NCBI GenBank assembly: GCA_036172245.1
Contig: JAYWIR010000031.1
Coordinates: forward strand, 1,054,001-1,118,000
Direction: 5' to 3'
Origin: Raillietiella orientalis
Taxonomy: Eukaryota
Length of the DNA stretch: 64,000 bases
Position 1 is the first letter of the stretch; each line of letters starts with the position of its first letter. The position numbers and the translations under genes were made by a program. The notes below the pieces were generated by a model. The model was not told the origin of the DNA and searched no databases. It saw only the letters and a list, made by a program, of their open reading frames with translations. Below are positions 13,743 through 39,000 of the stretch, piece after piece.

Positions 13743-14302
13743 GTTTATGAGCTCTCAGCAATTCGGGAACTTTCATCAGATCTCTCTTCGATTTTATCCA
13801 TAATAGGCCAACCGATCAATTCAAAAATCATTTTTTCAGTCAACCAGGAAGACATGCTTCTTGCATCCAGAGTTCCAGAAGTCTGTGTGCTAACCCAAAA
13901 AAAAAAGCGAAGCATTTTGGAGCAAAATGCCCATTTTTTTCCCCTGCTAGGTGCATTTTTTTTCCTAGACACCATATTGTGTGTCATGGAAATAGAGGCA
14001 AACATAGAAATCCACATTTGTTTTTGGAATGGATTTCGATTACATTCCTTGCGTGACTTCTTCGATGTCGAGAACTCATTTTTTTAATCTTTTAGATTCC
14101 TCATTCTTTCTGCGTTCGTACGTGGAAATTTCGAAGCAGTCCCCAATTTTTCTCTAGTAAAACGTGAGATACAAGTTCAGGTCGAAAACGTGTTTTCTGT
14201 ACCGTACGTTCCCTTTGTTAAAGAATGTGCAAGGCCGCGCCTGCAGTGGTGCTTTCGTAGCCAGCTGTAAGGGTCCATGAGCTTGCAAGCGCCACAGTCT
14301 TT

Positions 14303-15848
14303 ATCACCCGGATATGCCGCGGCATTTATTATTCAAATTTTTACATAATGAAAATTTGATAATAAAGTCTGGTAAATAGGTTTAGGCAGAACACGTGGTT
14401 CTGCCTATCTTGACACACTTGCCTCTGCCAGTTCGCAGGCCGCAGAGATCCCGTCCGGATGCGATGGGGAATGAAAACCACAGACAAAAACAGAAAAATC
14501 AAATAAAAACCAAGGGGAGGGAAATGTTTTTGGGGAAGGGAGGGCTGGGAAGGGATCACTGATCGCTCCGGGTGGTTCTCTGCATCCTGTTCAGGATGCG
14601 GACAAGTTGCAGACGTAGTGGTCTTAGCCGGGACCATCGGGAAGCTTTCTCAATGTTGAGAGCCGCCCAGTGGATGGCGTTCCGGCTGTTATGTCCTCTC
14701 CTGGACGCAGTCCATTTTGCCAGGATCCCACGTATGCAGCAGAGAACTGCCACACACGCGGCTGCTGGCAGGGCGTCCTGCATCAGGAGGCGACGGAAAA
14801 TGTCCTTCGGGTCGCCCCCGGGAATGTTCAAGATCGCCGACAGTCGATCCCACATGGGTCGGAGGGCGACACACTCGATGATGAGGTGGGGGAAGGTCTC
14901 CTGGTCCCCGCACCCTGCACAATTGGCATCCACAATCCCTGATGTCCAATGGAAGAGACGTGCTTTGCAAAGGAGTTCCCAATGGAACACTAGCAGCGCC
15001 GTCTCCTGCCATTCCAGGGACAGGGTGCAACTATCCCAGCACTCTGGGGGCCACTTAACCTCCTCCGGAGGTATCCCGAGCAGCTCGCCCCAGCGCACAA
15101 GTCCTTTAGACGGGACGCTCGGGGTTGCAGCGTCCGCTAGCTCCCGAGTCGTCCACGCCTTCAGCGATTTTCTCCTGCCTCGGATGAGGCAGTACACTTC
15201 CCACAATGCTCTCTCGTTGCTGTTTCTAATGTTCTTGAGGCAGGAGAGAACGGGGGCAAGGGGGGTCAAGGAAGCCCACAGAAACTTCTGCGGGTTGTTT
15301 ATGATCTCCTGCAGGGGCTGTCGAGCGTTGAGTCCTCGACGGAGACAGTTGCACTCCGCCTCGCTCGTGCCGTTGATCTTGGCCCACGCGTAAACTGACT
15401 CCTGAAACCAGGCAGTGCAGTTCGCGGGGAGGCAGGAGATCCAGGTATTCTCCCTCATCAGGGCGACCATCTGGCGCAAGTCACGGCCACAGCTGATGAG
15501 GCTGCGCTGGTATGCCACGAGAATCGAGGACAGTCCTTCGCAGCCGGTCGCTCTCCTGGCGAGGATCCGTGCGGGTTCGCACCAAGGCGTCATCCAAGAC
15601 GCCGCCGCAAGGGCGAGTCTTCTGAATTGGAGGCCCAAGCCACCGTCCCTGCGTGGAGCGCACATGTCTTTTAATCGGGCACGGGACCTTTCTGTGCCCC
15701 AAAGGGCTTTCCTTAGGAGGACCTCGGTCCTTTTTTTCATGATCGGTGGAGGGGAGCAAACAAAAAGTAGGGGGCGAAGGAGGGGGGCCGCGAAAGCGTT
15801 CCACGCCGCGGCCCGTTCCGGCAAGTAAAACTTGGCATTCTGGAACGG
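14303..15848 (-). mobile_element. 5'-truncated L1/Tx1-type non-LTR retrotransposon, copy A (young)
   Basis: Encodes post-RT ORF2 motifs (LLRKALWG, CAPRRDGGLGL, zf-RVT-like CAGCGDQETFPHLIIEC..LRPMW), then a pyrimidine-rich 3' UTR with a stem-loop. Flanked by a 14-bp TSD: gcgccacagtcttt (14289-14302) and gcaccacagtcttt (15849-15862). GC is higher than in the flanks. Confidence 0.92.
14556..15848 (-). pseudogene. Uninterrupted C-terminal ~430 codons of LINE ORF2 (post-RT region plus zf-RVT); endonuclease and RT core absent
   Basis: ORF track 14556..15956; the part above 15848 is TSD and flank read in frame. The TGA stop is at the same position in copies B and C. Confidence 0.85.
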
Positions 15849-18800
15849 GCACCACAGTCTTTCGATAGAAGGGGAAGCCAAATATGCCGTGACGTGCAGG
15901 AAACATTGCTGGAGTTTTTGCTGTAATAGCAAAATGGACATACGAAACGAATCCAAAAGAGCACATCTCCTTTATTTCGCTTAGCTTGTGTGCTTTGAAA
16001 TGAGCTCGGAATATCTGAGCAGTGATTTGTGAGAAGTTCTGTGAAGAATGCCACCTGGATCCGATTTGGCTGCTTTATTTATTTTTATTTTTCTCGTATT
16101 ACGAAAATCCTCGCTCCTGAAGACTCATCTCATTGGCTTTGATCACTGCAGCTTCATCCTAAGAAGAAAAAAACACTTGAGTGGGTTGGTTCTTCTGGCA
16201 CAGGCAGTTTCACTTCAGCACAGGAAGAAGAACCAGAGGAAATGCAATCTTGTGGAAGTATGGGATAAGTTGTTCGAAATTTCTGAATGGAAAATCGCAC
16301 TTTGCGATTGCTTTCAGTTCTGTTGAGAGCAAGGACGGTTTTTGGCGTGCAATTCTGTAAGTTCAGTCTGTAAGTCTAAGCGTACGTCCGCGAGCACAGA
16401 CGCGTCGAAGAAGCAAAACCCATCTCACGTCTGTCCGGATGATGAAAATTTGCATACGCCCAGCAGTGTGTTCCCAGGAAACAAACGCTCACGGTTCAAA
16501 ACAGTGCTTCTAAACACAACATGGTTTGGAAGGTTTTTAAAGACTGACTTGCTTTGCAAAGCTCAGCCTTGCTGAAAGAGGTTTATCTCGTTCTAAAGTC
16601 AGCTCCACAATCTCACTTTCAGCAAAGCAAATAAGGATCGTGGCCAATCCCCCACCTGCTACGTGAGGCAAATCCGAATTCCTTAATCATAAAAGGAAAA
16701 AGGCCTAGTGAAAATAGACACAGCCGTAAGGACACGTAAAGAGTACATTCAGATGGGCGAGCTCTACATCACTTTTCTAACGGCAAAAGGTTTTGACCGA
16801 AGCGATGGGAAAAGATATGGACATGAGGTCCGTATATCCATTGCAGTGAATACGGAATTTTTTCTTCTTCTTTTTTGAGGAGGAACCAGGCAAATAACAA
16901 CAAGCAGGAAACCAAGTTGAACCACCATCTGCTACCACTTCCGGTCGCGCAACGTAGCATCAATGAATCAAGAAGTGCCATCTGCTTTAAATTTCCTCCG
17001 TAGCTGCCGCTTGGATCCGAAGAAAATCGCTTCTTTTGTTCCATCAGAATGAAGATCGTCCGCTGTACGTCTGAAATTCTTCACAGAAGACAGTCAGTGA
17101 GTTTTTGTGTTTGTTTACTTCATGATCCGCGCAAGATAAATGCGTGAAATTCATACTTCGTGTTAATCAGAACTGTCCACTCTTTGACGCAGTCACTATC
17201 GAGGCTCGCACACACTTTCCCTTTGGACCATTTTCACAGATGCACTTTCTCTACGGCTCGATTGGTCGTGAGTTCCTTCCAGATAGAAAAATTCCCATCT
17301 TCATGAAACAAATGTCATCATATGCTTTTCACATCCCTCGGCCAAATGGATGTGAGGACCTCTATTCTTCATGAATTCGAAGTGAATACAATCGAAAGTT
17401 TCAGACCCGGAGTCTATTGGTCTATTTGGACAAAGCGGCTGGCGGCTCAAGAGTGCACAGTCAAGAGAAAGCGATAGTCTTCATTGGTGCATAAGAGGAC
17501 TTTCAGGCATATTCAAAATACCCTCTTTGGGAGCAGATATTTTTAGAAATCCCCGACTGCGCGAAAAGTCACCATCTGTGGAAAAAGATCTTCGTCGGTA
17601 AACTTCATCTTAATTAAAAGAAGTTTTTTGTACCTTTTTTTTAGGAATCGTTGTGTGGCTGCTGCGAAGAATGCCCAAGCAAAGACGAAACAGTTATCCC
17701 TTTCTGGTCAGTAATGACACGTCCCTTATTCGTGACTGTTTCCTCGTTCCAAATAAACGGAAAGTCGGGAATAATTCCAGTCCTTGGATTAGCTGCATGA
17801 AAACGAAACTCTTTCTTTGTATCGGCGGACACGTACTGATGATGACCACGTTTCCTTTCATATTCTTCCGAGTAAATGAATCTTTGCCTGAATGCAATGT
17901 ATCCAAAGTTTGGCTCCTTCGGAAATTGCTAATGATAAACAACATCTCGATGACGTGCACGTCAATTCACTTGATTTGTTTGAGGTCATTTGTGATTCTT
18001 TTTCGAGTTATCAGTCTTTGATCGACTCCAGTTTGCTACTCGGTTCTCTTTTGATCCTAACCCAATTTTCGCAACCAGAAACTACTTCCGGTTCGGGGAA
18101 ACTATACAAAACTCTATCTCGAAATGGAATACAGTTGAAAGTGACATCAACGAGTTTCTCTACTCTACTACTGTCTGGCTCCAGTCTGCTCCTCGCTGGG
18201 TTCCTCACAGACTTTGCTTCACTCGCACAGTTCAGTTCGATGCAGGCGAGTAGTGCTTCCGATGGCATAAATAATTCTCTTCGAGTCAAAAAAAAAAAAG
18301 TCCGTCTTGCTTTCTGGAGGACGAACTTAAGGTACACTTCTTTGTATATATGTATGTTGATTATACCGAATACATCTTAATCCTTCCTTTGCATATCTTG
18401 GGTTCAGCACACCTTACTTCTTTCTATGCTGAAGAAATCCTCGTCATCCCAAATGGAAAGCTCTTTGCCGGCGAGTCTCCAGAATTTGCAGCTCCAGCAC
18501 AGCAATGAGCGTTCTTTGAAGATGCAACTCGAGAACTCCTGCTTCTCTTAAATGCCTTCTTGTTCATTGACTATGGTTCTTGTGCTTTCACTCTGATTTC
18601 TATGCTTTCTGCCCTCTCTTCGTTCAATGCGCAGAGCTGCTTAGCTGCTGAATCTTGAGGACAAAGTAGTAACTATCATTACTGTTACCACTGTGATCAT
18701 GAAAAGTGATAAAGTTTGAAACAATAGCGATGAATCCGATTTTGTAATTTGACCAATTTGAAGTTTAGTTTCCGGCCCGAAAAGATAACTTCGTTCTTTT

Positions 18801-21351: not shown

Positions 21352-23480
21352 GCTTTAGTGACCCCAGTCAGGCTGCCCGTCACGTGGTCGCTGAATTCTT
21401 TCCTTTTCAGAATAAAATGACAGAAAGAGTACATCCAATTTGTATGCGTGTTATTTTCAGCAGGTGATCTTCTGCATGAGAAGCCGTGCATCTTCTAACT
21501 TTACGTTTCATGCATTTAAATGGAAGGATTCCAGTCATTAATCATGAAATTCGAGAGGATTCGAGTTCGGCGAAGAAAAAAGGGACCCTGAAAGCCTTAC
21601 TGCTTGAAAGAAATCGTAGGGGTTAGCGCGTAGCAAAGACTTCAAGAGCTTCTTTTGACATCAAAGTACACACAACTCATTTGGCATCTAATTAAGCACT
21701 CCTAAACGCATTTGCAAACACATTTCAAACCGATTGGATGCTCTGTAAAGTGCATTTTTCCGAATTTCTGCCTTCTTCTTCCGCAGTCTTGAAACTCTGA
21801 CGTTGCAAATCGCACTCTGTATCATTTTTTTCAGTCAGCATTTGCCAAACTTTAGATGGTCACCACAACTGATCGCGTGCGCCCGATGTGAACATGTGGC
21901 TATCCGAGCTCGATAGATACATAAATTTCGTTGATAGTACTCGTTTACGTACACTCTATTTTCTGGAAGATAGAATGAAATCCAGCAAACTGTTTTTTCT
22001 GAATCATATGCAAATTCTCCCTGAATTGCGACTACAGTGGCCGCTTCTCATATATGCAGTAAGCTGAACTCCAAACTTTTGCATCCTCCATGATGCTTTC
22101 ATTAAAATGACAAACCGGAAGTGTTTTGAAGAGTTCGAACTCTCTGAGGGATGTTCAGTATGAACTTAAAACTAAATAGGCCAGTGTAAAATGTGATGCA
22201 AGGGTTAATTCATCACTGCAAAGTAAGGCGATAATGTGGAGACACATGATTTAAGTTCGGATAATGAACAGTGAAACGAAGAAGTTATCATTTAAAGTAA
22301 AGAAAGAAAAAATGGGGTGTTCCGCTTCGGATGTCGTGAAATAGTTTGAAAAGTAACTGAGGAAGGCCTTTGGAAAAAAACTGTCATTTACAGGCTGATA
22401 GCTATTACTCGTTCCGAGTTTTTCTGAAATTTTTCATGAAAGGATGAATTTCGATCTTGGATTCCCTCATCTTCTTCATTCCTTTTCTTTCTTGTAAGAG
22501 TTTTTCTGGAATTTCCAGTAGTCAGCATGGAAGGGAATCTGGATAACGTTCGGTGATTTACTTAGGAGGACATGAAAGCACCGCCTTATTTTATGAGGTC
22601 ATAAGCGTTGTTCTGACAATTATCCTTGGACACCATCATTTCAAATCATAACTGCCTCATCATTCTGCATTCCTGATTAGACACCAGCGCGATTTCAGAA
22701 ATTCAGCTTATAGCTGCCTCAAGTAGCGTCACCTGTAGCAAAAAGAAACATCCATGGAAACGCAGAGATGCCATTGAGCCAACGAGTCAGCATCTGCATA
22801 AATCAAAACCTCTTATGTGTGGTTCTCCGTGTTTTGAAACTATGGTGCAGACCGTTGCTATGCGTGCGGCGAATCATTCTATAATCTCTCTCGAATCGAA
22901 TCCAAGAAATGACGAATCGTCCGAATATGCAAATGTCATCTACGATATCAAAATGAGAATACACTGCTGGTTGCATATAAAAAAGAGATACTTTCAGAGC
23001 TGTTTACTGAGGTGTGAGAAAATTCTGCACAGGAAGGTCATCACCAAAATGTCTTAGAATGGTTCACTTTGAAAAAACAAAAAAACAAAAATGAACTCCG
23101 AAATGGATAGCCTCTGCATTGAAGCTTTTGACCAGAGCACACGATCAAAACTCCAGAATTCGCCCTGTGCACTAGGATGAGTGATTTTTTTTTTTTTCTG
23201 TCTGAGCGAAAGCAATTCTCAAGTTTCTTTTTTCGTCTGTGCATTAAAGTAGAAGAACTGTTTCTATTCAATCCAGCACTGTGGTCTCACATTTCCACAT
23301 TCCACAATGGCTGCTAGTGTCATAAGGCGGGCCCCGCCAATCGCGGAATCTACGTCATTAGAATATCTGGCTTCAGGATATCAGTAGGGATGCAAGCAAG
23401 AGGAGAACTAGCGTGGGCACAAATCAGCTGAAACGGTCATAAGGATGGAAAATCTCACCTCAGTAGTAGTACTGGAAGTG

Positions 23481-23543
23481 GATTTTCTCATCAGCATACG
23501 ATCCAGTTAGATTGCATTCTGATCTTGCACTGATGAGAAAATC
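23481..23543. repeat. 63-bp hairpin with perfect 14-bp outer arms
   Basis: gattttctcatcag (23481-23494) / ctgatgagaaaatc (23530-23543), with imperfect inner pairing. Confidence 0.85.
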
Positions 23544-24200
23544 GAACAAAAGTACAAATCCTTCGTGCCGTGGACAGTACACCTCCTACATGATTGCAAA
23601 TGATTGATGAAAATTATCATCCGGGAACTTCCAGGTGATGCGGCGAATCCGTCCGAGCTTTCAGTTCAACTGTGGCGCGATCCTGCTCAGTTTCCGAGGA
23701 CCCGCACACAACGAACACGCAAATTCGTTGAGAGTGGGCAGCCATATCTCCAGACGTTGTCTCAAAAGGATGGAGAATTTTTTTTTTGTCTCTGGATCGT
23801 CCAGTCGGAGTAGCTGAACACACCACATCACAGACTCAGATTGCGCAGGGCGATCACTAAAAAATCGAAGTCAGAAGGCATGGTGCAGATAATGATCCGT
23901 ATCCGTATCCGAAAGAAGAAAGTATAGGGAGAGGGCAGCTGCAGTGTCGAAACAGTGAAGCATCAAAAGAAGTGAAGCGTTAATCGGGGTGGGATCCCAG
24001 ACGGTTGCGACAGACGGGGACGCTGTTTAGTAGACTGGAAAGTAGGGTCACACGTAACTGTGGGAATGGCCAGTACTAAAAACACCGTCCAACTGTTGAC
24101 CATAGGTCTTCTTTGCATCCAAATTTCCAAAAAAGACACAATGAACACAAGTCATGAAGCAGCGAATGTCACTCAGAGTTGAATGGGCTCGCCTGGCGAT

Positions 24201-25018
24201 TCTCACTCGTTATGCAGGGGCACTTATTACGGAAAGTAATAAAAGTACATTTTTGTGGTAGAACCATTGGTTCTACCACGTGCTTGGGACCTGCTGAGGA
24301 CCGGTACGCAGACCGGCGAGGTCCTCTTCGGCAGGGTGGGGGAAGGGAAAACAAAACCAAAAAAAAAAAGGAAACAAACAAAACAGGGGAGAGGAATTTA
24401 AACACGGAGAGGGGAGGGAAGGGCCAAGGAAGGGATCACGGTACGTTGCCAGGCGTCTTCTGAATCCTGCCCAGAATGCCGACAAGTTCCGTTCGGAAGA
24501 TGTCCAGGTGCGACCATCTTGAGGTGGTCCTCAGGAAGATCCGCGTCCAGTGGATGGCGTCCCTGCCATTCTGGTCTCTTCCCTCGTTTCAGGCTGCCAT
24601 GATTCCGTGGATGCAGTAGAGAACTGCTAGGGACGCGACTGATGGCAGATCGGCACCGCGCACGAAGAGGAGTTTGAAAATGTCCCTAGGGATGCCCATC
24701 GGGATTCCTAGGATCGTAGCGGGAGATCCCAAATCGGTCGGAAGGCAGCACAGTCCAACAGCAGGTGCGGGAGGGTCTCCTTCTTCGTGGACTTCCCGCA
24801 CTGAACTTCCACGCTCCCCCATGTCCAGTGGTGAAGGTGCGCTTTGCGCAGCTCCCCATTCAACACCAGCAGCGCCGACTCCTGCCAGTTGAGGGGGAAG
24901 GCGCCACTGTTCCAGCACGCTGGGGACCACTTCACCTCCTCCGGAGGGATGTCGATCAGCTCCCCAGAGTGGCAGTCCGTGGGGTGGGACATTCGGGGAC
25001 GCAGCGTCCGTCACTTCC
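24201..25018 (-). mobile_element. Degenerate 5'-truncated LINE ORF2 3' fragment, copy B
   Basis: Translates with frameshifts to EVTDAASPNVP..GELIDIPPEEVKWSPACW..ETLPHLLLDCAAFRPIWD, homologous to copy A; same 3' UTR hairpin (24255-24279). TSD gggctcgcctggcgat (24185-24200) / gggctcgcctgatgat (25019-25034), 14/16 identical. Confidence 0.88.
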
Positions 25019-25034
25019 GGGCTCGCCTGATGAT

Positions 25035-25841
25035 AGAAATCCTTTCGGGTTCTTTTGCTTTCGCTGCTTTCCTTCAAGTTTTTTTCTTTTTGTTGGGTTT
25101 TCTTTGTTGTTGTTGTTGCTGCTGTTGTTTCGCTAAGTGCTGAAGAACCGTTCGCCTTCTTGAAATGGGCTCACAAATCTTTTTAACATTGTCCACACCA
25201 CCTAAGGGTGCGTGTGGTAACTCTTTAAGCTAGGGGACAACTCCAAGGAACCACCCTATGAATCCAGGAAGCCTCCGGACGAAGGAGTCCGCACTTCTTA
25301 CGCTTGGTAGGGAACAACAAAGGGAACCACTTCCTTATTCTGTTCGGAGGTATCCACAAAGGGGTCCTGTTTCATTATTTTTTCTCCAGAGACAACCTGG
25401 AAAGGATCCGCTCCTGGAATTTCTTCTCTAGAGGGAGCCCGCAAGAGCACTGTTCCTTGTTTCCTCCTCTGAAGAGACTCTTAGTTTCTCTGAAGGACTC
25501 TTCCCGAAGGGAGCAGAGCGCTTCCAAACACCCTGCGGAAGCAACTCTGCAGGGAGGGTGTAAACAGCCTCATGGTAAGGGTGTCTCCCGAGAGGAGAGT
25601 GGCTCCATTCTCGCAATTGGGGTGGAATCCCGAAGGGAACCGACTCCCTGATTCCTAGAAGGACGCCAGCAGATCGACTTCCAATCCCGCCCAGTCAGCG
25701 GGGGCATCCGGTCTTCCACCAGTGCCGCACCCGAAGCCTGTAAGGAAACCGGGGTCATCCTCTGGGTGGTGACCCGAAATCCACGGCGCATCCATTTCTC
25801 GAGGGGGCGACTCTCCACGTGGGGATTTGAACCTGCAACGC
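25035..25841 (-). mobile_element. Repeat X1: decayed ORF1-like segment
   Basis: Clear DNA and peptide similarity to ~32240-32950 (VAGSNPHVESR/VAGSNLHVEGR; QASGAALVEDRMPPLTGRDWK/QASGAATLVENQMPPLTGRAWK) and, inverted, to ~27240-27745. ORF1 identity is inferred. Confidence 0.7.
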
Positions 25842-26429
25842 GGGCATCGCTGCTGCAGCTCAAACTGGATTCCTTCGATTTTGCAGTTTCATGTGCTCTC
25901 AAGGGTGATCTTCAGGAGCGACATTTCGAAAATGAATTACAGTCCACAGTGGTTCGGTCCTGTCGCTTTTCACTTTCAACGGCGCTTGGCATCGTAGCGC
26001 GACAGATAGCGATGACTGAAGATGTTGCAATGGCGGGACAGCGAATTGAGACCGTCGGAAAATCTGCTCCGCTCCAGAGCCTCTCTGACGGCATTGAGGA
26101 TTTCCTGATCGCCAAAATAAATGTATTTGGAAGATTCGGTCTTCGCTTACGAGATGACCTTAATGCAGCACGTGATCTTACGGCGGATGCACGAAAGAGA
26201 AAGCAGAAACGATGCATCCCTGTGTTTTTTCCCTTGAGTACGAACAGCTCACATCACAATTTCTCTCGCATGAACAACACGAGATGAGAAAGAGGAGGGG
26301 TTTCCAGCAAAGTATCACGATTGGAAGTGGCTGCTGTCCCAGTGGCAGGATTTCATACTTTTTTTTTCCCGTGACAATCACTGGAGCAACCCTTCGGTGA
26401 TGGAAAGAATAATATTTTTTTTTTTTTCG

Positions 26430-26630
26430 CGCGCGCGGCGCTGTTGCTGCTGCCCCGGGGTATCCCGTGCAACACCCGCCGGCATCATTGGACGCAGGGG
26501 GGTAGGGGTAGACCCGAACTGTCAAGTGCGGGAGCGTGGATCCCTCCCCCACCTGCTATTGGATTGTCCTGCCCTCCGGCCTTTGTGGGAACGCTTTGCC
26601 GCGGCTCTGGGAACACCCAGCGGCAGCTCC
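26430..26630 (+). mobile_element. Internal LINE ORF2 zf-RVT fragment, copy D (no 3' UTR); ends approximate
   Basis: GIPCNTRRHHWTQG / VDPNCQV..GSLPHLLLDCPALRPLWERFAAALGTP matches the zinc-finger region of copies A-C. Confidence 0.8.
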
Positions 26631-27119
26631 AGTTCCCCTGCTCACAAACACATGAAGCAGACGCCTTTTATACATTTCACTACTGAAATTCTAAAGAAAA
26701 CGATGAAGAAGGAATGAGTCACAGCGGAGGACAAATCTCAAAGAGAGTTCGGAATTCGATGGATTCTTAAGTTGACGAAGAGATACAAGATGGCTTCGAT
26801 TCCTTTCGACTTTATTAATGCTGCGACAGCGGCCGCAGTAACAGCAGTCCTGAAGAAGCGAAGACTGAAGAAGCCGCGGATGCAGTTGTTTTATAGAAGA
26901 TGATGAGGAAAAATTCACGGAAAATTAGCGATTTTAGAAAATCGTATGAAGTTCATATCTGAAAGTCGATTATTCTATTAATGGTTCAGTTACTAGTTCA
27001 AAGCGACTGTAAGCAACCAGCTGAAAGATCCACAAAAATGCCCCTCGAGGAAAACCAAAAAATGCTCGCTCTCTTCGGTTGTTGTTGTGAAATGCTGCTG
27101 ATGCACTGCAGCTTTCCAT

Positions 27120-27740
27120 AGAGCCTTCTCTTGGGGGTTCCATCAAGCACATTAGTCACTCAATGGGGATGCTACCTAGGGAATTTTCCATCGAGTACCA
27201 TGGTTCTCCATCGAGGGGAATGATCCATCGAGGGGATCATGCAGCTGGTTGACTGATACCTCTCCAGAGTGTCCAGAAGTGCTTCGGGAAGCGATCGTTC
27301 AGAGAAATTTGAAAGCGTTCCCACGGGGTTCTCTTCAGAAGAAAAACAAGGAGAAGATTGTTCCCTTCGGAGAAGAAACAAGGGAGCGGCTCCTTCCGGA
27401 GGGTCCTTGCAAAGAAAACAAGAGTGGTTTCCTTTGGAGCTCCTTTCCGAGACAACCAGGGCAACGGCGCCCTTCTGGATTCCCTATCTAACTCAAGAGA
27501 GGAACGGACTCCTTCCTCGGGAGCTTTCCTGGATTCGAAGGATAGTCTTTCCGCAGTTACCCCCTAAATTGAGGAGTTATCACGTGCTCTTGGGTGGAGT
27601 GTACAATGTTCAAAAGCTTTCTGAGACACCTCTAAGTAGACAAACGATTCTTCAGCACTCAGTGAACCAATAAAAAAAAAAGACTGAAAAATAAAATCTG
27701 GAAGGAAAGCAGGGAAAACAGAAGGACCTAAAAGAATTTC
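27120..27740 (+). mobile_element. Repeat X2: decayed ORF1-like segment (5' boundary approximate)
   Basis: Homologous to X1 and X3 (shared gggttctcttcag, caaccagggcaa, ggactccttc, gagtta.cac, ttcttcag; peptide LRSYH..LGGV..RQTILQH). Ends at gaatttc-catcatccag. Confidence 0.7.
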
Positions 27741-27753
27741 CATCATCCAGAAC

Positions 27754-28668
27754 TCCCCTTGCCTTATTGCTGACTTTCTTCAGGGACGCAAGGGACAGCG
27801 TGATCTCGGCAATGTGGGAAGTAACGTGCTGCATAGCAGCAAAAAAGAAACTTCTGGGGAAGTGGAGAAGTCGGGGAGTCACGGCCGCTGCGACCCCGAG
27901 TTTACCACCCCATGGACTTGTACTCTGGGGAGAGTTGCTCAGCCTCCGGAAGAGGTGAAACGGCCGCTGCGTGCTGGAACAGTGGCGCCTTCCCTTTCAA
28001 GAGAGGAGGAGTCGATGTTGTTGGTGTTGCATGGAGGAATCCCGTGCAAAGCACTCCTTCGCCACTGGATACGAGGGAGCGTGGGTGCTCAGCGCGACAG
28101 GTGCGGGGAGAAGGAAATCCTCCGTCACCTTCTGGTGGACTGTGCTGCCCTTCGATCCCTTTGGGTCTCCTCGTAATGACCCTAGGATTTCCAGTGGGCG
28201 GCCCTGGGGACATTTTCAGACGCCTCTTTGCGTGTGCCGCACTGCTGCCAGCCGCGTCCCTCACAGTCCTCTGCGGTCTTCACGGGATCACGATGGCCTG
28301 AAACTCCAGAAGAGGAGGCCGAAATGGCAACGGCACCATCCACTGGACGCAGATCTTCCTTGAAAGCGCCTCGAGATGGCCCCACCCGGACGATATACAG
28401 ATGGAACTTGCCAGTATCCTGAACAGGATACAGAGGACGCTGGGTAGCGGACTGTGATCCTTTCTTCGGTCCCTCCCTCCTTCCCGTGTATAAATCCTTC
28501 TCCTCTGTTTTCGTGTGTTTATTTTTTGGTGTATGTTTTTGTTTCCCCTTCCCTCGCGCTGCCGGTCTTCGGCAGGTTCATTGCACGTGGTAGAACCAAG
28601 GGTTCTACTACACCAATGTATTTTTATTACTTTCCGTAAGAAATGTCCCGGCATAACCGGGTGATAAT
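27754..28668 (+). mobile_element. Degenerate 5'-truncated LINE ORF2 3' fragment, copy C
   Basis: PLALLLTFFRDARDS..AAATPSLPPHGLVLWGELL..CGEKEILRHLLVDCAALRSLW with frameshifts; 3' hairpin at 28587-28611. Perfect 13-bp TSD catcatccagaac at 27741-27753 and 28669-28681. Confidence 0.9.
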
Positions 28669-31600
28669 CATCATCCAGAACAAGTCAACAAAATGTGCTA
28701 TGAGTGACTCTACAGAAATGGTTGCTTCGGCTTAGAGTCATTTGTTCCAACAACCGCAGTCATTCGGATTTATGAAAGTTACCCATGCAGCAGGATTTCT
28801 TGCTTGGCTGCAGGATCGTCAATAGTTCAGGAAGAGACCAATTCAAACAAGAAAACAGATGAAGCAGTAAATTATTCTGCAGCAATTATGCACTTCTGAT
28901 GCGATGTTTGGAAGAGCCATCATCGGAGGGGATTCAACTCTCTTGATTTCAAGTATCATCAGCTTCCTTGGAAATGTTTCTTGCTGTTAGAGCAGAAATT
29001 GGAATGCCATGATGCGCCGGTCTTGAGCTGTTGACACGGAACACCTACAGAACCACGGAGGATCGTAGTAGATCGTCTGCAGGAAATCGGAAACCGTATG
29101 AAAGTTGAGATCTGTCAGTGATGACAGAAGGGACTTTGGAAAATGAGAATTTCTCTGAATCTCTGGACTTTCCTTCTCTGATGCATAGACAGAGAAGTGA
29201 GTCAGTCTTCCGTACAACGCGGGGGGTATGTTCCCCGTGTAATACGAAGCCTATGGATTGTGCATGGATAACACGATAGTATTTACAAAAGAGTAAAAAA
29301 TGCATCTTGAAAGCTATGACAGTAGAATATCTATTATTTCACTTTAAATCAAAAAGAATTATCAAAGGTGCTCTTTAACTGAAAGTTGAAAAAAAAAAAA
29401 AAAAAAGCTCTTATAGTTTTGTGGATATTTAATCAATGCAAGCAATTGTATGGTTTCAGCTCTATCACTGATGGATCATGTAGTAGCTTCCTGCCCTATT
29501 TTGTTCACGGATATTTGGGTGGAACAGAATTCAACCCACTTAAATCACTTGCTTTTATTCCCTTTAAAAAGGACTGAACTGACCCTCAGATTGAAATTAA
29601 TTCACAGCGCGGTGCAGGGCTGCCGTACGAGCGTCTCCACATTTGCGCCGCGTTGTACGAACCCGCGTTGTACTGGTCGGGTGTACCGTGCCCGAAAGTG
29701 GAAAGAGAACATTTGGAGATTCTTGTATCCATCGGTTTTTGAACGGCGGATCTGCGGGATGGAATTCGGCATACATTCGTCCTTTTCCCAGAATTTTTCA
29801 AAACGAAAACGCACTTCCGTATCTCTCATATGGGCAAATTGATTCAACAGAATTGAAAAATTCATTCATCCCTGTTTTTGTTTTTTCATTTGAAAATGGG
29901 CGTGCATTCTAAGATTTTGGAAAAAAATCTCGTTTCTAATAGGTATCTCGAGATATTGGTTTTACTTGCTTAGGGGTTCACTGCATTTCACATATGCAAT
30001 GAGCTCTTGCATTCTAACTGTTCATCTGTAATAGCACCGTCAATGATCTTCTAAATGTCATGTTGAACTCTTTTCACTCGCGTTGCATCCGTAATTTGGT
30101 CACTGATTATCTGCTAGAAGGGCAGATCTGAGCGCAGAAAGGAAGAGGAAAAAAAACGCACACCCACACGCACGGACACGTTGTCACAAGAAGTTTCTTT
30201 GGATCGCTGGTGCAAGCAAAGATATTCATCTGCAATGATGTTTGGCGATCACACACTCACTGCAATCCGTCATTCTTATGAAGAAGTTGACCTGTTTCAA
30301 GGAAGATTCACGCATTCAGCATCTGTTAACTGATACAACGAAACTTTGAGTTTTTAATGGGTAGCTGAGGATGTCTTAGGAGGAGGAGGATATTGGAAAA
30401 TGGTTACTGCAAGGGTAATTCTTTTTTACGCCGAACCTCCGAAATCACGTTGAAATGCAGAGCACCTCCAGCAGCAAACTTCGAATGATGACCAATTCTG
30501 TTGTTTGGCTGACCACAACAAAGCCCGCAGGAAGGAAACGGGAAGAAAGTCCTGAATCTTCGACCGAAGGACTGATTTCTGCTTTCGACAGCGGCTGCCA
30601 GTAGAATTTCAGGAGCAGAAAGAGTTTGCTCTTGAACAGTTTGCTCCAGTGCCGTTTCGTGCTTGGCATGTGAACCGACGGTATCAGCTGATGCTCAGAG
30701 TACAGAGAAGAATCGGGAGATTTTCTGATTCGCACTGAAATCACAGCAGAGGTTGGTCCGGACACTGGAGATCCCAAAACCAGGCCGTCCCTCATGACCT
30801 ATGTCCAGTCATTTTGAAACTGTTGCTGCGCATGGCACGGGAACCACATTCTTCTAAAATCCCAAGGCCTTGCTAGCTTTAGAACAGGGATCGAAGCTGC
30901 TGGAAGCTTCTCTTCCGGCTTTTCAAACGAAGTTGTTGATTTCATGTGACTGGAGTGATCCTCGATTGGTATTATTTTTTAGAGAAAGATGCAAACTGGA
31001 ACGAGCAGTAAAAGAAAAACTTGGCAACGAAAACTATTATAGAAGTGTCATTGGAGCTCTCGAGATGAAACTATTCATCCTACGTCTAAAATCGCGTTGG
31101 GAAATCGTTCACTACTGAAATTCTTTTTTTTCGGAAAAAAAAATTCATAAGAGTGTCAATTTTTCTTTTTTAGTGATTCTGCTCCTTTCTCATATTTATG
31201 ATTATCAATGTAACCTTCAGTGAAGTGTGTGCGCGAAAATAATACGGAACTCCAGCGTTGCACCCTTACTGCATTGGTCATGAGGTAGAGTGGCTTGAAG
31301 AGTCGTCTGGCTTCTGGGGAAGAAGGCAACCAGGAAAAAAGAACTGGCTGCCTTTTTTCACCGTTCATCAACCCACTGCAACGCCGCGATCTTAGGACCC
31401 GACCGTCTTCGTAACGCTGCTGCCAACCGTTCATCAGATTCCATCCCGGAGCTGTCAGCAGCCAAGATTGCCTCTTCCCTTGCTCCTTGTGAAAAGGATG
31501 TTTGATGAAGACGGTCCTCCGGTTTCGGCGCCAACTTGTGATTAACGGGAAGACCGCGAGCTCAGCTTCATGCGGCATGGAGTATCTTTCTGTTCAGGGT

Positions 31601-32049
31601 CTCTCTGGGCCTTTGCTCCTTTCTGGTGCTCCATCCTAACAGCTGCTGACGGCGCAAGTTTCTTGCTCTTTGACCTTTCAGCGTGCGGAAACGGAGGCGT
31701 CCACTCGTTTGCTGCTTGGACGTCATTCTAATGGGAATCGCGAAGGAAATCCGGTGCGGAAACGAGCGCCGCCGTCCGAGTCTGTCTGCAAACACTGGAA
31801 ATCTCCAAAGCAGCTCTTGCAATTTCCAGGATTAATGCCTCTTGATGATGGCCGTGCTTGCCCGTTAGCAGGCATCGGGGCCACTGCTCCTTTGCGCGCC
31901 AAGGAGAATCCGGGTTGGACTTTGCCGGATGGAAATCCTATCTGGACGTCAATCGCAGTCTGGACTGCGGCGTTCTCTTTTTTTTTTATTGAGCAAGAAT
32001 ACGTGCAGAGCAAGCATTCCTGGAGAGCAAAACGAAACTTCACTTTCCT

Positions 32050-33300
32050 GATGATGGAAATCCCTACTTCCCTTCCGGCTTTCGCTTTTTTGTTTTTTCG
32101 ATGGTCGGGTGGCCCTCGCTGCACAGAACCGGCAGCCCTTCGAGAAGCCCGGGGAACTTCCCCGCCTCGAGCCTATTGTCCCGATTCCGAGTGGGGAACT
32201 GTTTCCCTCCGGGCCTCCTGTGCTCCTGGAGATCGACTGAAGAACCGTTCGTCTCCTTAGGGGTGGCTCATAAGACCTTTTAGGCACCGTCCACGCCATC
32301 CGTGTGGTAACTCCCTAAGTTAGGGACCACTCTATGAATTCAGGAAGGGACTCCAGAGGAAGGAGTCCTTCCCTCTCTTACGCCCGGTAGGGAATCCGGA
32401 AGGGAACCCTTGCCCTGGTTGCCTCCGAAGGGAATGGGACCCTGAAAGAATCCTCTTCTTTGTTTTGTCCGAGATGGTCCCCCGGAGGAGACTACTCCTC
32501 GTTTCTTCTGCGAAAGGAGCCCGGAAGGATGTGCTCCTGAACCTCTTCTCCGTAGGGAACTTGCAAGGGAACCGCTCCTTTCCTCCTCTGAAGAGAACCC
32601 TGAACCCCGATTCGCTGAAGGGTAGCTCCCGGAAGAGAGGGGCACGCTCTTACACTTTGGAGAGGCAATCACATGAGGGATGCGGAGGTGTCAACCAGCT
32701 TTACAGTACACGATGGAAGCCTTGTTTTCCCAAGAGAAGGGGAACCAGCTCATTGATTCTCGGAGAGTCAGCTTCCAGGCTCGGCCAGTCAACGGAGGCA
32801 TCTGGTTTTCTACCAGTGTGGCCGCACCCGAAGCCTGTACAACAACCGACATCATCCTGCGGGGGGAAGGGGGGATGTGACCACTTTAAACCCATGACAC
32901 AGCTCTTTCTCGAAGAGACGACCCTCCACGTGGAGATTCGAACCTGCAACGCTAGCGGAGGCTGCGGCCTCCGCAACCACCAGCGCGGTCTCGACTTCGG
33001 TGAGCGGAATCCCGCCCAGATGGAAATCCCGGATAGACTTTCGTTGGGACGTTGCTCGCTCCAGACTGCTGTTCCTTTATTGCGTAGAGATACATACAGA
33101 GTGAGGATTCCTCTTGATCGAAACGGGATTTTTGCAAATCGGGGAGCGAGAATTCGAGAATATTCCTCAGGTGGCGGTGATGATACGGCAGCAGCTCTGT
33201 CATCTCCAAGGTGCTGGGTGGCAAGAAACTAGTGGACCAACCATTCCAGGATGCAGGCGTGACAGGCGGCGAATTTATTTTTTTTTCTTTATCATGTGAG
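32050..33300 (-). mobile_element. Repeat X3: longest ORF1-like copy, with no ORF2 fragment following (5' boundary approximate)
   Basis: Frameshifted peptide KSIRDFHLGGIPLTEVETALVVAE..QMPPLTGRAWK..FSWENKASIVYCKAG*H resembles the RRM plus degenerate zinc-knuckle layout of L1-type ORF1p. Ends at gatttccatcatcagg, like X1. Confidence 0.6.
32107..32234 (-). repeat. Diverged partial copy of the neighbouring gene embedded in X3
   Basis: 32107-32181 aligns to 33896-33970 and 32182-32234 aligns to 34067-34119 (DLQEHRRPGG..DNRLEAGKFPG versus DLQEHRRSGG..DNRLEAERFPG), with the 96 bp between missing. Confidence 0.85.
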
Positions 33301-33666
33301 ATCTCCTGGGCACTCCTGAGCGAGTCACCTTTTACTGGAGCCACAGCCTCCGGCTCTCAGCGTGGTTTGTTCCACAGTTGCTGTTATTTCCGTGATCGGC
33401 GTTCCTTGAAGATTGCCAACTGGTAAAGCGCTTTCGGGAGGCGACGGAAGCAGGCGTCGGAATCCAATCGGGATTGCGGCCACTAACGTCCACTTCCTCC
33501 CGTGGTTCGGGTCTGGGTCGCCTTGGCAACGGAGCTTCGTCCGGACGACGATTGATTCCGGCCCGCCTCCCACATTCCTCCTTCCACACGATCTGAACGG
33601 ATCCGCGCAGGGATCTCGGGTGGAACCTTCTCCGGAGCGATGGCTGAGGACCTCAGTCGGAGGGTT

Positions 33667-36030
33667 TCAGAAAGGAGGGTACAGAAGGAGTTTGCTCTCG
33701 ACTTCTCCCTGGAGAGGCAAGATGCCAGCGTTTGCAACTGGGATACGGATGAGAGGGATGATGAGACGTTGCCTCGCAATTCCCGCTTTCCCGGTTCGGA
33801 ACGCCCTCTCGTCGGGCACCTCCTGGGATGGCCGGTTCTTCCTGGGAGCGTTCGCGTTCCTCTGCTGCTGCGCGCCGCCGAAGCCCCCGCCGCCTGGGTG
33901 GTCCTCGCTTCGCGGGACCGGTAACCCTCCGGGAGGCCCGGGGAACCTCTCCGCCTCGAGCCGATTGTCCTGAACCACGTGGTTCCTGCTGCCCGAGTGT
34001 CTCCCTGGGACGAACGCATCTGCATCCCGGAAGGGGTCATCGTTCCTTTGCAGTGCCAGCTCGTCACGATCCCGCGCGGCGAACTCCTCCCCGCCGGATC
34101 TCCTGTGCTCCTGGAGATCAGCGGCACGCTCCAGACCCGGATCCTTTCTGCGAAATTCCGAGGCGAAACGGGGTCCCGGAGAATCCCGATCGAAAGAAAA
34201 CGGGGAGAACCCCACCGCTTCCCGGTGGCTCTGGTGGCGGCTGGAGGCGTCCGCACGTGGAGGAGGAGGGGCAGGGCGCTGCTCTTCTGGATCCGGGAAG
34301 CGACCCGCGGACTTGGATGGTGCCGCCTCGCGGGCTCCAGGCGCTCCTGAGAAGGAAGTGGCGAGCTGCTGCTGGGGAACCCGCTCTCGGAAGAGCCCGT
34401 TCTGCTCATCTGCGAAGAGGGACACCTGCTGGCTCGGGAACGGGTTCTCCGGAGCGCCTCTCCGCGGTCCCGGTTGGGTCCCGAGAGAGTCCTTTCGGAA
34501 GAAGCCGCTGTCCGACCGACGCGGAAGCGGGTTTCCATCCTGAAGGAATGAATCGTCTGTTCCCTTCGGGCTCAGGCGGTTCCTCAGTGACTCCCTCGCG
34601 CCGGTGGACCTCTCTTCGCCGAAGGCGCCAAACCCGGGGCCACCTTCCCTCTGTAGGGGGGGGTCGGGCTGCGGGCGCCTCCCGAGCGGAGCCACATCGA
34701 TCTCCTCAAACCCGCTGCCAGGCAACGGATTCCGATGGAGGAGGCGCTTTCTCGCTTCTTCCGGGTGGAACAAGCCTGCGTTCTTCCTGAAGGCGGACCC
34801 GACGCGCTGCTCTTTCTTGCGGACAAGCACGGAGTTGTCCTCGTGGCCGATTCCATCGGCCCCCAAGAAGAGGTCGTTCCCCGGGAACGCTCTCCGGACC
34901 GCAGCCAAGCCCTCGGGGGAATTTCCGCTGAATCTACCGGGTCCTATGGCGTCGGGATTCGGGGGCAGGCGGGGTCGCAGAGCGACCGGAAGGATCGGCC
35001 GCTCTTCTCCGCCTTCGCCCGGCCCGGGAGGGTTCCTCTTGAGGAACGCCCGGTCGGACGGAGGCGCGTCCCGCTGGAGGGGGAAGCTCTCCTCGCGGGC
35101 GGGGGGCAGCCTCTTCGGGACGTTGAATCGGCCGCGTCCGTGGTCGGCCGTCTGGAGGGCACTCTCATCCTGACCGACGCGCAGCCGGCCGTGCCCCTGG
35201 TCCTGGAGGAGGAGTCCGGAAGGAACGGAACCCGACAGCACTGGAGGCGGGATGTCCTCGAGCACGGCAAACGTGAAGCCGGCGCTCCTCCGGCCATCTC
35301 CGGGCAGCGGCAGGGGAGCAGTCAGGAAGCGGAAGTCGGGGATTCCCGCTGCAGGAACGGGGAGGGACGCCGCCGTGTCGTGTCGGCTCAGGGGAGGGAA
35401 CCCTTGGTCAAAGGGCAGCGTCTTCCGCCTGGGGATCTCTCTGTGGATGGCGGCGACGGTGGCCACCGGCGGTGGGCCCTGGCCGGGTAGGCGGGCACCC
35501 AAGGGAGGGAGCCGCGCCGCCGGCCGGAAGCCTCTCTGGGGCCTTTCGGGCTGCCTCGGGACAGGAATGTGCCTTGTCCTGGGTGGCGCCGGATCTTCGA
35601 ACGGGGGGCCGGGCTGCCTCCCAAAGCTGCCGAACCCGCCTTCCCGGTTCCCGAAGTTCGCGAATTCTTCCCGCTTCTTCACGCGGTTTCTTACAGGAGG
35701 AGGCACGCTCGGCACTCGGGGATTCCCGCCTCTTCCGCCGGCGGGGACGCGCGCCATAACGTCCGGCTCCCGGCCGCTGACGGGGGACGGTCCTTCCGGT
35801 GGCATCCCGGAACCCGTGCTCTCCCTCTTTTCCCTGAAGGACCGGAGATCATCGCCTGCAGAGAGCCTGCCCCGCCGGGAACGCGAAGACCATTACCGGG
35901 ATTCCCGAGGGCGAAAGACGTACCTTTGCCGCGGCGCCGGAAGCGTCCCCGCGGATCCGTGGACCAGGAGGCACATCCAGACAAGTAGCTGGGAGCAGAC
36001 GAGGAAGGCCTTCTTGCTCTCCGTCTTCAT
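33667..36030 (-). CDS. Putative secreted ~768-aa intrinsically disordered Pro/Arg/Gly/Phe-rich protein; exons 36030-35924 and 35866-33667
   Basis: ATG at 36030 begins a signal-peptide-like MKTESKKAFLVCSQLLVWMCLLVHGSAG. A phase-matched 57-nt GT-AG intron removes the only in-frame stop and joins it to the 712-aa ORF, which has no Cys or Trp, unlike the overlapping frames. Confidence 0.75.
35867..35923 (-). other. Predicted 57-nt spliceosomal intron
   Basis: Donor AG|GTACGT, acceptor GGGCAG|G, both phase 2; contains the in-frame TAA at 35893-35895. Confidence 0.7.
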
Positions 36031-39000
36031 CCCGACGCTCCTTCGGCCGCGTCCCCGGAGCGATCGGAAGTTTTCTCTGCCGGGGCGATGACGACCCTGC
36101 TCGGTCCGCGAGATTCGGGTCTCGGTCCCCAGCGGTTCATCCGCGAGGTCGAAACGGGGGAAGGAGGGATGAGGTGGGAGGGGTGGGGGGGGAGGGGCGA
36201 ATCCCCCTTTCACTCGGCTTTTCCTTCCACTCGGGCACCGTGTCCTTTCCTGGCGGAGAGGGAGCGGGTCGGGAGCATGGTCAGGCGTGGCCGGGGTGGC
36301 TGGAGAAAAAACACGGGTGAGATCTCGTCGTGAACTGAGCTGCGGGCCGAGCCTCGAGCTTTAAAGACCTGTGGGAGCGCGCGGCGGTAATGGAAGTCTC
36401 AAGGATAAGCAGAGGTCCAAGATCGGGCGCCTGTGCCCGTCCGTTCCGTTTTGGGGGGAGCGCGCGAAACCTCGTCTCGGGTGCACTGGCGGCTGTGCCC
36501 TCCACCTTCCTCGCGCCGGGGGAGCGTATGGCCGTCACGGACGGCTGGGCAGCAGCAGGGTCGGAGGTGTGTTCTCGACCACCGCCTCCTCCTCACGGAG
36601 TTTCCTCCTCCTCCTCCTCGACGTCCCCTTCCCGGCTTCGAAGTCCGCAGGCGTTTCCCCCTTTCCCGAACTTCTTTCCCTTTTTCCCTTCCTTACGCCC
36701 TCCCTTCCCCCCCCCCCCCCCCCACTTTTCCCTCCTCTCCTTTCCTCCTCCGGGGCTGTTTACAGCTTTACGGTCAGGAGGAAGAATTTCCGCCGGGCGA
36801 CCGTGGGCGGCCGCGAGGCGAGTGGGCGCAAAGGTGAAATATTTCTCTCGCCATTGTAGCACTCGAGTTTTCCTTCGCGCGAAGGACGCGCGCTTCGGAG
36901 CGATCTCGTGACAAGGAGGTGCTCGCCTCTCTCCTCTTCCGGGGTGGGATTTTTTTTTTTTTTTTGGACAGCGGCGGCGGGGAGGAGGACGACGATGCTG
37001 CCACGACTACGGAACCCGTCGCCGCTGATCTGCAGCGGCCTGAGCGAGCAGGGAGGGAGGAAGGGGGGGGGGGGGGGGGAGGAAGAAGAAGAAGAGCAAA
37101 GAAAAGGAAAGAAAAGAGAGCATCGGGAACGAAGGGCTCATCAACTCTTTCACAAACCCGACTCCGAGGCGGGCGCGCGCGCACCTCCTGCACCACCACT
37201 CGAAGAGCTGTTTCGTCACCTCGCCAAAAGACGACGCACATCCTTGGGTAGATCCGAGTTGCGTCATTTTGTTTTCCGTGGATGATACGGTTGTTCTATT
37301 TGCGACCGTGGATCGCCGTTCTTCCCCCCTCCCTCTGTGGCGCTTTCCCGCGTGCCCCTCCCCCGTTGCGTGCCGAGAAACGGGTCCACGCGACGGCGGC
37401 GGCGGCGGCGGAGCAGGTTGCGCAACCCGTTGCGAGACCCGCGGGTATTTTTAACGCGATCGCCGCGCCCTTGCGATGCGCCAAGAGCGCCGCTGCCGAG
37501 CGGCCACCCCGGACCCGCTTCTCGGAAAGGTGGAGGCCGGATGGATGAGGGGGGAGGGGAGAACGGATCGTCTCCAGGAAAGCGGGCAGACCGGCCCACG
37601 AGGCTCGGCGAAACCACGCCCGAAGATCCTCGCCGCTTCCCTCCGTGTTTAGGGAGCAGCAGCCGCCTACCGTTAGGATGAATGATCGAGCGAGCATTCT
37701 GCGCAGAAACGGATAGGAGAAGGGGGAGAGGGGAGGGGGGGAAGTACCCTTCGGCCGTCGGCTCAAGGTGGCTTTCTGCGTTCCGGCGCACCACCCAAGA
37801 GCAAGGCGCGCACAACCGTGCAAGCTCTCTCGTCTCTCTTTTAAAGCACAGCTCAGTTCTTCCTTTCTTGCACCTTGCTCGCAGCTCCCTGAAGGCCGAC
37901 TGGCGCCCATGATTCGCTGCTTCATCTCCGTGGCGCCGCTGGAACGTCCTGCGCCTCCTGTTCCTCTCACGTTCGCCAGCGTCGCTGATGAAGTGTGGAC
38001 GATTCCTCGCTCCCATCCGCAAATCGCACCAACGCGGCGTTTCCAAATGTTCTTCGAGGACTGGGAGGGAGTCGCGAACATCCTGGAGCATCCTGGAGCT
38101 GCTCCAGCAAAGGGGAAACTCCGGCACTTTTCAACGATCCTTTGCTTCGAGGGACATCATCCTGACTGCGGGTCGCACTCCGAATGATCTCTGCATCACC
38201 CATCCAAGAAACACGGGATCGCTGGTGAAATCTGTGCCGAAACGATACATGTAGTCCAAATCAAGAATTGTATAAATTCTAAAACTCCGTTCACGGTGAT
38301 CCCTCATGAAATATTTATACCCTCCATTCTCGTGCCAAAGTGGGGCGTGAATTGCGTCTCTCACGTCGTAATTATCGTTCCTCTCCAGCGCATCTCTCTT
38401 GTCGTTTCCCAGGTGATTCCAGTGACGATGAGGAGAGGTTACGGACCCAAAACATAGGTGCATCCTTATTCGAAAATTGTGAGCTCAGGAATTCCTGCAC
38501 CCGCCACGAAAAGAATAAATAAATCGTACGAGGTGGAGCTGTTTGTTTACTCCCCTAAGCCTCTTGCAAGGGAGACAGCACGGGTCGCTCTTGGTAACCT
38601 GCTCCATTTGTGCACATCATAGTTAAGCACGGCTGCCAAAGATGGCATAGTGTTTTGTCTTATTTGTGCCATCCTCGTGCTCCATAATTGCTCTTGTGGC
38701 AGTATGGTCTTCCGTACAGTGCTCCAAATATAAAAAGCATCCCATCTTGGGCGAAAAGGTGCTTCGATCAGAGATCGGCCACGGCAGAGCCACCACCGAA
38801 TGGACAAAGAGGAACGAATCGGTACGTTTCGTTGCGTCAGCTCAAATAGCAGACGCATTCAATTAAGTGATTTCGAAAATGCCCACGACTGATTCCTTTT
38901 AATAGTGTTGCTCATTGAATTTCGAAACGGTTAGACTCCTGGTTGTACAACTTGTTGCACTTCCTTTCGAAATTGCGGAAATTCAAAAAAAAGAGAAAAA

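Follow-up and report, generated by a model that had tools for sequence, protein, structure and literature searches.

The window analysed here, a stretch of 64,000 nucleotides (nt) of Raillietiella orientalis DNA (contig JAYWIR010000031.1, positions 1,054,001 to 1,118,000 of the forward strand), twice contains a same-oriented pair of retroposon remnants. Each pair is very probably the product of two separate retroposons inserted one after the other: first a short interspersed element (SINE), called X, and then, at its ATCATC, a 5'-truncated piece of a long interspersed element (LINE), called LX. A preliminary description, made from the sequence alone, had noticed the twice-repeated succession of an X segment, a target-site duplication (TSD), a fragment of the second LINE open reading frame (ORF2) and again the TSD, and this layout is now confirmed at both loci and genome-wide. 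The two units and a third X copy are composed as follows, Z being the 3' hairpin tail of the SINE.

25029..25846, minus strand: X1, old SINE copy (SINE profile match, model 48-922), from the 5' start to ATCATC, without the Z tail
25019..25028, minus strand: 5' copy of the LX TSD at locus B, the 10 base pairs (bp) after ATCATC
24198..25018, minus strand: B, 5'-truncated LX piece, found by tblastn with the full-length relative P0003 and by the LX profile
24185..24194, minus strand: 3' copy of the TSD at locus B
27205..27747, plus strand: X2, 5'-truncated old SINE copy (model 305-922), ending at ATCATC, without the Z tail
27748..27753, plus strand: 5' copy of the LX TSD at locus C, the 6 bp after ATCATC
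27754..28669, plus strand: C, 5'-truncated LX piece, with ORF2 from about residue 984, beginning in a C-rich truncation hotspot
28670..28681, plus strand: ATC tail and 3' copy of the TSD at locus C
32050..32993, minus strand: X3, old SINE copy with full head, ending at ATCATC with neither LINE nor Z behind (an empty, Z-less site)

B contains the ORF2 C-terminus from about residue 1023 (start residues of B and C being numbered on P0003), the 3' untranslated region, a terminal hairpin and the ATC tail. The TSD copies agree at 14/16 positions at locus B, with the ATC tail counted, and at 13/13 at locus C. As both the start residues and the TSDs of B and C differ, the two insertions are independent events, as had been proposed; it is also borne out that the TSD lies between the parts and not around both, and that these are not internally deleted LINEs. 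X1, which has lost ~45 nt of its head between two GCGTTG repeats and ends in TTTCTATCATC, X2 and X3 all end alike at TTTCYATCATC. The joint had been described as a fixed ATCATC(C)AG: the common ATCATC end holds, but the AG or CAG is seen at 7/83 X ends, three of which are those of this window. The degenerate third TSD copy suspected at 25842-25855 is withdrawn, since the first five bases of the SINE itself (TGCCC) lie within this stretch and the match score is at chance level (4.5, off-diagonal mean 4.4).

The evidence that the SINE was the target comes from a eukaryotic genome assembly of 210 Mb in 491 contigs, from which the loci designated by L-numbers (e.g. L042, L078, L198) were fetched; all genome counts refer to top-scoring subsets (each DNA search scored 40 candidates) and must not be read as copy numbers. 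When a 421-nt query of LX sequence alone is used and the window's own copies are excluded, an X end is found directly upstream of 25/29 other LX copies (one of them judged from its extended locus), while it is absent from 3 and unclear in 1. With an X query, LX follows X in only 8/29 other loci. A 28-base pattern spanning the X-Z junction has 215 genome matches (control 0), which are empty sites, and Z is found after the LINE in 22/60 composites with both ends, the LINE then lying within a complete SINE. The empty sites and the Z behind the LINE together show that the SINE was the target. At the junctions, the 8 bases after ATCATC were compared with the LINE's own 3' flank, with a threshold of at least 6/8 and permuted pairs as control: 20/38 Z-less composites reach this threshold, vs 4.1% of the permuted pairs, and 12/38 reach at least 7/8, vs 0.6%. 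With 25/29 copies behind the same repeat, independent truncations and TSDs, LX lies above the share of flanks (same repeat in >20%) that defines target specificity in the part of PMC4494074 available. The earlier proposal of a target-specific, L1/Tx1-type LINE cutting at ATCATC is thus supported by the fixed site and the junction pattern.

Outside X, LX copies have retained the motif together with a TSD (L195, L199, L152) or the motif alone (L147), so that a short sequence seems to be what the enzyme recognises. The SINE supplies a large share of the good LX sites, not all of them: the exact 11-mer target occurs 831 times in the genome (control 40) and the SINE-type 14-mer 446 times (control 2). 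Compared with the LX piece next to it, X has the higher divergence in 45/47 composites (0.175 vs 0.121); no young-type SINE head is present among 32 LINE-bearing heads, the young SINE clade carrying no LX, and young-type SINE copies lie inside LX in L210 and L212. The order is old X, then LX, then young X.

X together with Z is a non-coding SINE of ~970 nt with a tRNA-like head, in which ATCATC is internal, ~50 nt from the end. Its complete form, seen in young copies, consists of a head, a body, GGATTTCCATCATC, the hairpin of ~45 nt (Z), a T run and poly(A). In aligned copies the 5' start is fixed and a B-box-like GGTTCGAATCC lies ~55 nt in; the body is made of short duplicated units, and an A-rich stretch precedes GGATTTCCATCATC. 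The B-box and a T-arm-like stretch of the head are clear, the similarity to tRNA 3' halves is weak (z 4-5.5 over shuffles against 30/62 listed genome tRNAs), and an Rfam scan of window positions 23000-39000 gave no tRNA match and nothing relevant. X also occurs as dispersed, non-coding, 5'-truncated copies. Among 20 empty-site X-Z loci, the hairpin is followed by the T run and poly(A) in 18 (L221 and L227 were fetched incompletely at the Z end), and TSDs of 9-15 bp around the whole SINE, beginning in A's, are seen by eye in 9, the fetched stretch having stopped at or within the head in 4. In Z-bearing copies, 11 of them composites and one solo, TSD-like matches are also present on both sides of the whole SINE (p 0.017 by permutation), being visible by eye in L065, L089, L141 and L048, and in L083 X is inserted inside another LINE with a 13-bp TSD. 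The Z tail, the poly(A), the own TSDs and the insertion in L083 thus identify X plus Z as a SINE. Covariation in Z is near zero in an alignment of 15 rows, one of them (L135) on the wrong strand. Many young copies (L228-L237, and matches to the X-Z pattern) carry ATCGTC instead of ATCATC at the LX site; this variant could be an escape from the LINE, or a CpG state decaying to ATCATC.

X had been described as ORF1-like, and one of two alternatives then put forward made it the ORF1-only partner of a split, two-part LINE, its 3' end being targeted by the ORF2 element. The adjacency and common orientation of X and LX in those 25/29 copies, and stop-free stretches of up to 218 codons in the X consensus, would suit such a partner. 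However, two real ORF1 proteins of related LINEs gave nothing against 16 X copies and the consensus (best E 0.016, in a tiny database), a Pfam search of the X frames gave no relevant match, and only 45/172 X deletions are in frame. There is hence no coding support for an ORF1-like X, and its tRNA-like head, its poly(A) tail, its own TSDs and the presence of an ORF1 in the full-length relatives of LX speak against the partner as well. As X is a non-coding SINE, there is no split LINE, and we consider the ORF1-only partner highly improbable; what stands of this alternative is that the ORF2 element targets the end of X. HAL1 elements are ORF1-only elements, and X, which encodes no ORF1, resembles them only in its position relative to the LINE.

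The ORF2 pieces belong to a single extinct LINE subfamily of the L1 group, LX, and are 5'-truncated, with an ATC tail: the 3' end is a short hairpin followed by ATAATC plus ATC. In a tree of the ORF2 3' region, 35 rows, 24 lying behind X and 11 without X, form one LX clade (support by the Shimodaira-Hasegawa-like approximate likelihood ratio test, SH-aLRT, 99), apart from the full-length families. Full-length relatives, ~70% identical, are found in LINE-dense regions and encode an ORF1 and a protein of 1,212 residues with apurinic/apyrimidinic endonuclease (APE), reverse transcriptase (RT) and zinc parts. P0003 has the domains PF03372, PF00078 and PF13966, and LX pieces, the longest being ~3 kb, align to it from residue 30 onward. 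The ORF1 proteins of these relatives (P0004 and P0005) have a CCHC knuckle; LX's own ORF1 was not recovered. The best RT matches are 27-33% identical, among them an alligator Tx1 protein, and the P0003 RT is a long branch outside this protein (support 87). Judged from these comparisons, membership in the L1 group is safe, while the Tx1 clade is not shown because of this long branch. A fixed ORF2 start, suggested by many matches from query position 833, proved to be an artefact of B's own truncation point. No relatives were confirmed among the metagenome contigs searched.

The 3' end is alike in all full-length relatives: the same short hairpin, then a few bases that vary with the subfamily. 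The idea that Z belongs to the LINE as its tail was rejected, since these relatives end in the hairpin and other short tails; even where the profiles call no X or LX end upstream, the Z matches stand behind end motifs of the X type. At L139, L140, L147 and L151 an LX piece is followed by Z with no SINE upstream, and these are possibly read-through copies or swapped flanks. The LINE-dense stretches L173-L187, which lie on small contigs and at contig ends, contain arrays, both tandem and nested, of relatives that are young and in part intact; in one of them (L180, minus strand, ~8290-8470) the LINE 3' end and its hairpin stand in three tandem repeats.

The second alternative of the preliminary description was a single LINE with two priming points on its RNA, the 3' end and an ATCATC further inside; X would then be the 5' part of that LINE, and the terminal X peptide RISII the first strand of the ORF2 endonuclease. 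The ATCATC common to the LINE tail and to the X end agrees with such a double priming. X continues, however, into Z and poly(A) and not into an endonuclease, and no X match is present in 15 stretches holding full-length relatives, which carry a true CCHC ORF1. Moreover, the first endonuclease strand of P0003 reads differently from RISII, and L078 has preserved the endonuclease start of the LINE itself, located behind the TSD, which excludes RISII from this role. This alternative fails because X is not part of the LINE, and we regard it as scarcely conceivable, except for its weaker element, a paired insertion at one site, which does occur as stacked LX copies. In L198, X and a first TSD copy are followed by a very short LX end, a further TSD copy, a long LX piece and finally Z, and L096 has LX copies stacked likewise at a weak non-SINE site.

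The sequence of events is probably the following. X with Z inserts at A-rich sites with TSDs of 9-15 bp, as is seen for young copies. The LX endonuclease would prefer TTYCCATCATC and nick the bottom strand in ATCATC; the ATC tail of LX RNA would pair with the nicked strand, and a variable length would be reverse-transcribed. Cutting and joining of the top strand ~9 nt further on would duplicate ATC plus 6-13 nt, giving SINE, TSD, truncated LINE and TSD. The nick, the pairing and the second cut are inferred from the standard target-primed model, the junction pattern itself being observed. Most LX insertions fall in the SINE because it carries the motif in hundreds of copies, and since insertion restores the site on its 5' side, reuse is possible, as seen in L198 and L096. 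Short doublings of target bases right after ATCATC, resembling an insertion of zero length, are observed in L057:1748, L062 and L056.

Several results weigh against this succession of SINE and LINE insertions. A TSD is not detected at the threshold in 18/38 Z-less and 13/22 Z-bearing composites, and decay and ectopic gene conversion explain some of these, not all. The 11-mer being more frequent than the SINE-type 14-mer, many good sites lie outside X, and a longer context may matter. The age gap between X and LX is inflated by sampling on the LINE, as six composites anchored on X give 0.148 vs 0.133. No intact LX copy was found in the top-scoring samples searched. Finally, a 5' TSD of Z-less X is seen in 2/18 composites and 0/16 solo copies, and the left flanks of Z-less X are without the target motif (p 0.45).

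These last two points concern the origin of the Z-less copies. All three X copies of the window lack Z and many old copies stop at ATCATC, a recurrent end point immediately ahead of the Z hairpin. Z-less copies occur all over the X tree, which is star-like (24 changes vs a shuffled mean of 26.5), and thus arose repeatedly; a separate Z-less subfamily is not supported by this tree. One possibility, which we prefer although it is unproven and its probability falls somewhat short of even, is that they result from internal priming, by the ATC-tailed LINE, on the AUCAUC of the SINE RNA. It is favoured by the exact end point and by one clear case with three TSD copies, L042 (TSD-X-TSD-LX-TSD, with equal divergence of X and LX). 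L247, with a second, 5'-truncated X directly behind an X end (its own 3' end not being seen), fits it too, as does the lower frequency of an A-rich left flank (4/20 Z-less vs 7/12 Z-bearing X; Fisher p 0.053). Against it stand the rarity of the 5' TSD and the missing target motif in the left flanks, which internal priming would predict; TSDs around Z-less X reach p 0.06 on 27 rows, while old Z-bearing copies reach p 0.017 on 12 rows. The main alternative, a deletion starting at a cut in this site, is less probable but possible. Reciprocal products, with foreign sequence joined to Z, were not found among 57 distinct Z matches.

The Z-less composites could also be explained by a coupled insertion, in which LX lands at a genomic ATC site, copies the overhang and re-primes the same nick on SINE RNA via AUCAUC, within one episode. 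The stacks of L198 and L096, with three TSD copies and a short extra piece on the 5' side, would fit such a coupling, as would L042, L247 and the Z-less copies lacking the A-rich left flank of Z-bearing X. It gives no account, however, of the 22/60 composites with Z after the LINE, nor of the solo Z-less X (16 ends so classed, a few with partial Z). X is besides usually more diverged than its LX neighbour, their divergences are not positively correlated, and the left flanks lack the LX motif. A single episode is thus improbable as the general origin of these composites, and two successive insertions remain the preferred reading.

Another explanation would be that X and the LINE piece form a single composite element, amplified from a few masters or by segmental duplication. 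The clustering of 5' truncation points (21/50 at 900-950 nt from the 3' end) and a few loci sharing a junction (L196/L203, L197/L059/L200, L062/L073) could suggest it. However, junctions in general differ, each matching its own 3' flank, truncations span ~390 to >2,000 nt, and the X tree is a star without a composite clade. The shared junctions lie in tracts of 90-99% identity with mostly unrelated flanks, as gene conversion predicts. A composite element is thus very unlikely and already largely refuted. Near-identical tracts are seen in otherwise old copies at separate loci (L196/L203, L197/L059, L062/L073, L156/L096, L045/L195); L196 and L203, for instance, are 97-99% identical across the junction, their flanks being unrelated. 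Such tracts are consistent with recent ectopic gene conversion.

A chimera made by template switching is expected to have a TSD around the whole chimera, whereas in X-LX the TSD lies between the parts and again after the LINE. Chimeras of small nuclear RNA (snRNA) and L1, which are attributed to template switching and in which a truncated LINE follows, in like orientation, a 5' part derived from the small RNA (PMC4494074, consulted in part), resemble X-LX in the order and the orientation of the parts.

The truncation points themselves show a hotspot. Besides the cluster mentioned above, 13/56 LX 5' ends lie at 941-946 nt from the 3' end; among the copies obtained with the short query, 10/16 lie at 888-956. 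The cDNA strand of the LX consensus (1,514 nt) has a single canonical quadruplex motif, 943-916 nt from the 3' end, and the corresponding C-rich stretch lies near window position 27754 in C. That a quadruplex might set the hotspot is a lead only, drawn from this coincidence of positions, and it is weakened by three single old copies in which the motif is broken; moreover, a stronger G-rich peak near 230 nt lay beyond the reach of the sample, and gene conversion may sharpen the 943 peak.

LX is not the only LINE landing in this SINE. A second subfamily is inserted antisense at SINE position ~165-180 (L041, L044, L045, L051, L069, L082, L098, L194, L204, L215) and forms its own clade (6 copies on the tree, SH-aLRT 97). 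A sense LINE at position ~733 (L070, L198) also forms its own clade (2 rows, SH-aLRT 97). At least three LINE subfamilies thus use different sites of one SINE. Sense LINE-type 3' ends with other short tails are also observed at SINE positions ~79 (L144, L041) and ~619 (L111). A wider scheme, rather unlikely as a whole, would combine these features. The LINE's ATC-tailed RT, priming on AUCAUC, would spread Z-less SINEs whose end is the site that it targets best, at times within a single episode by re-priming at one nick; the few-base tails of sister subfamilies would partition the SINE sites; and a G-quadruplex of the cDNA would set the truncation at ~943 nt.

The LX case is best compared with the crocodilian Tx1-Mar/SINEU-3 system in Mariner-N4_AMi, where likewise an APE-type machinery prefers one site in an abundant repeat, in the available part of PMC4494074. 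About 90% of SINEU-3 copies are target-flanked in Mariner-N4 according to this source, vs 25/29 for LX. Tandem SINEU-3 copies sandwich a TSD and are read there as sequential insertions (PMC4494074), the same architecture as the stacked LX copies of L198 and L096, and in both systems 5'-truncated copies serve to show independence. In contrast, the LX target is a SINE with a tRNA-like head and Mariner-N4 a DNA transposon; the LX site lies ~50 nt from the SINE 3' end and is also the exact end of many SINE copies; the one SINE serves at least three LINE subfamilies, each at another site; and the RT of the LX relative is not sister to the alligator Tx1 protein. A likeness of SINEU-3 TSDs to the LX site (p 0.01 vs shuffles) was not used, another spot of the SINE scoring higher.

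Tx1 of Xenopus (Tx1L) in Tx1D, Keno in U2 snRNA, and Kibi and Koshi in microsatellites (PMC4494074, PMC4640811, both in excerpt) are, like LX, sequence-preferring APE-RT LINEs homing to a multicopy sequence and leaving TSDs; LX differs by its class of target and by a preference that is strong but not strict (3/29 outside X). Z-less X copies recall in turn tailless retropseudogenes, 3'-truncated copies of small RNAs with a preferred end in a single-stranded region, formed by internal priming on target-complementary sequence (PMC5322556, in its available portion). The end point is similarly placed just before a structured region, here the Z hairpin. These retropseudogenes are primed on A-rich sequence by mammalian L1, with TSDs (PMC5322556), whereas Z-less X copies end in an ATC repeat and their TSDs are mostly undetected.

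The other LINE-related feature of the window and the remaining stretches observed in it are the following.

14301..15971, minus strand: copy A, a related but different LINE subfamily, with a different tail and not behind X
26436-26632, plus strand: a small isolated LINE ORF2 fragment, between both units
33483-35892, minus strand: GC-rich open frames of 741 and 362 codons, with no Pfam match; parts of this stretch are repeated at 32107-32234, beside X3

The window's elements are dead, and the results imply no function for the host.

The known targets of LINEs listed in the consulted part of PMC4640811 are rRNA genes, spliced leaders, tRNA genes, transposons, microsatellites and telomeres, and no published LINE targeting a SINE was found in a literature search without most subscription papers and Repbase. 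Our results add SINEs to the repeats serving as landing sites of APE-type LINEs. The association of LX with its SINE is well supported as a known targeting habit with an unusual landing pad, and not as a split LINE. One SINE, at least three sister LINE subfamilies and young, intact relatives form together a natural series for learning which endonuclease residues and 3' tail bases determine the choice of target, a question of use for RNA-templated insertion. Finally, the Z-less copies and the stacked insertions bear on the poorly understood step by which the 5' end of a new LINE copy is joined.

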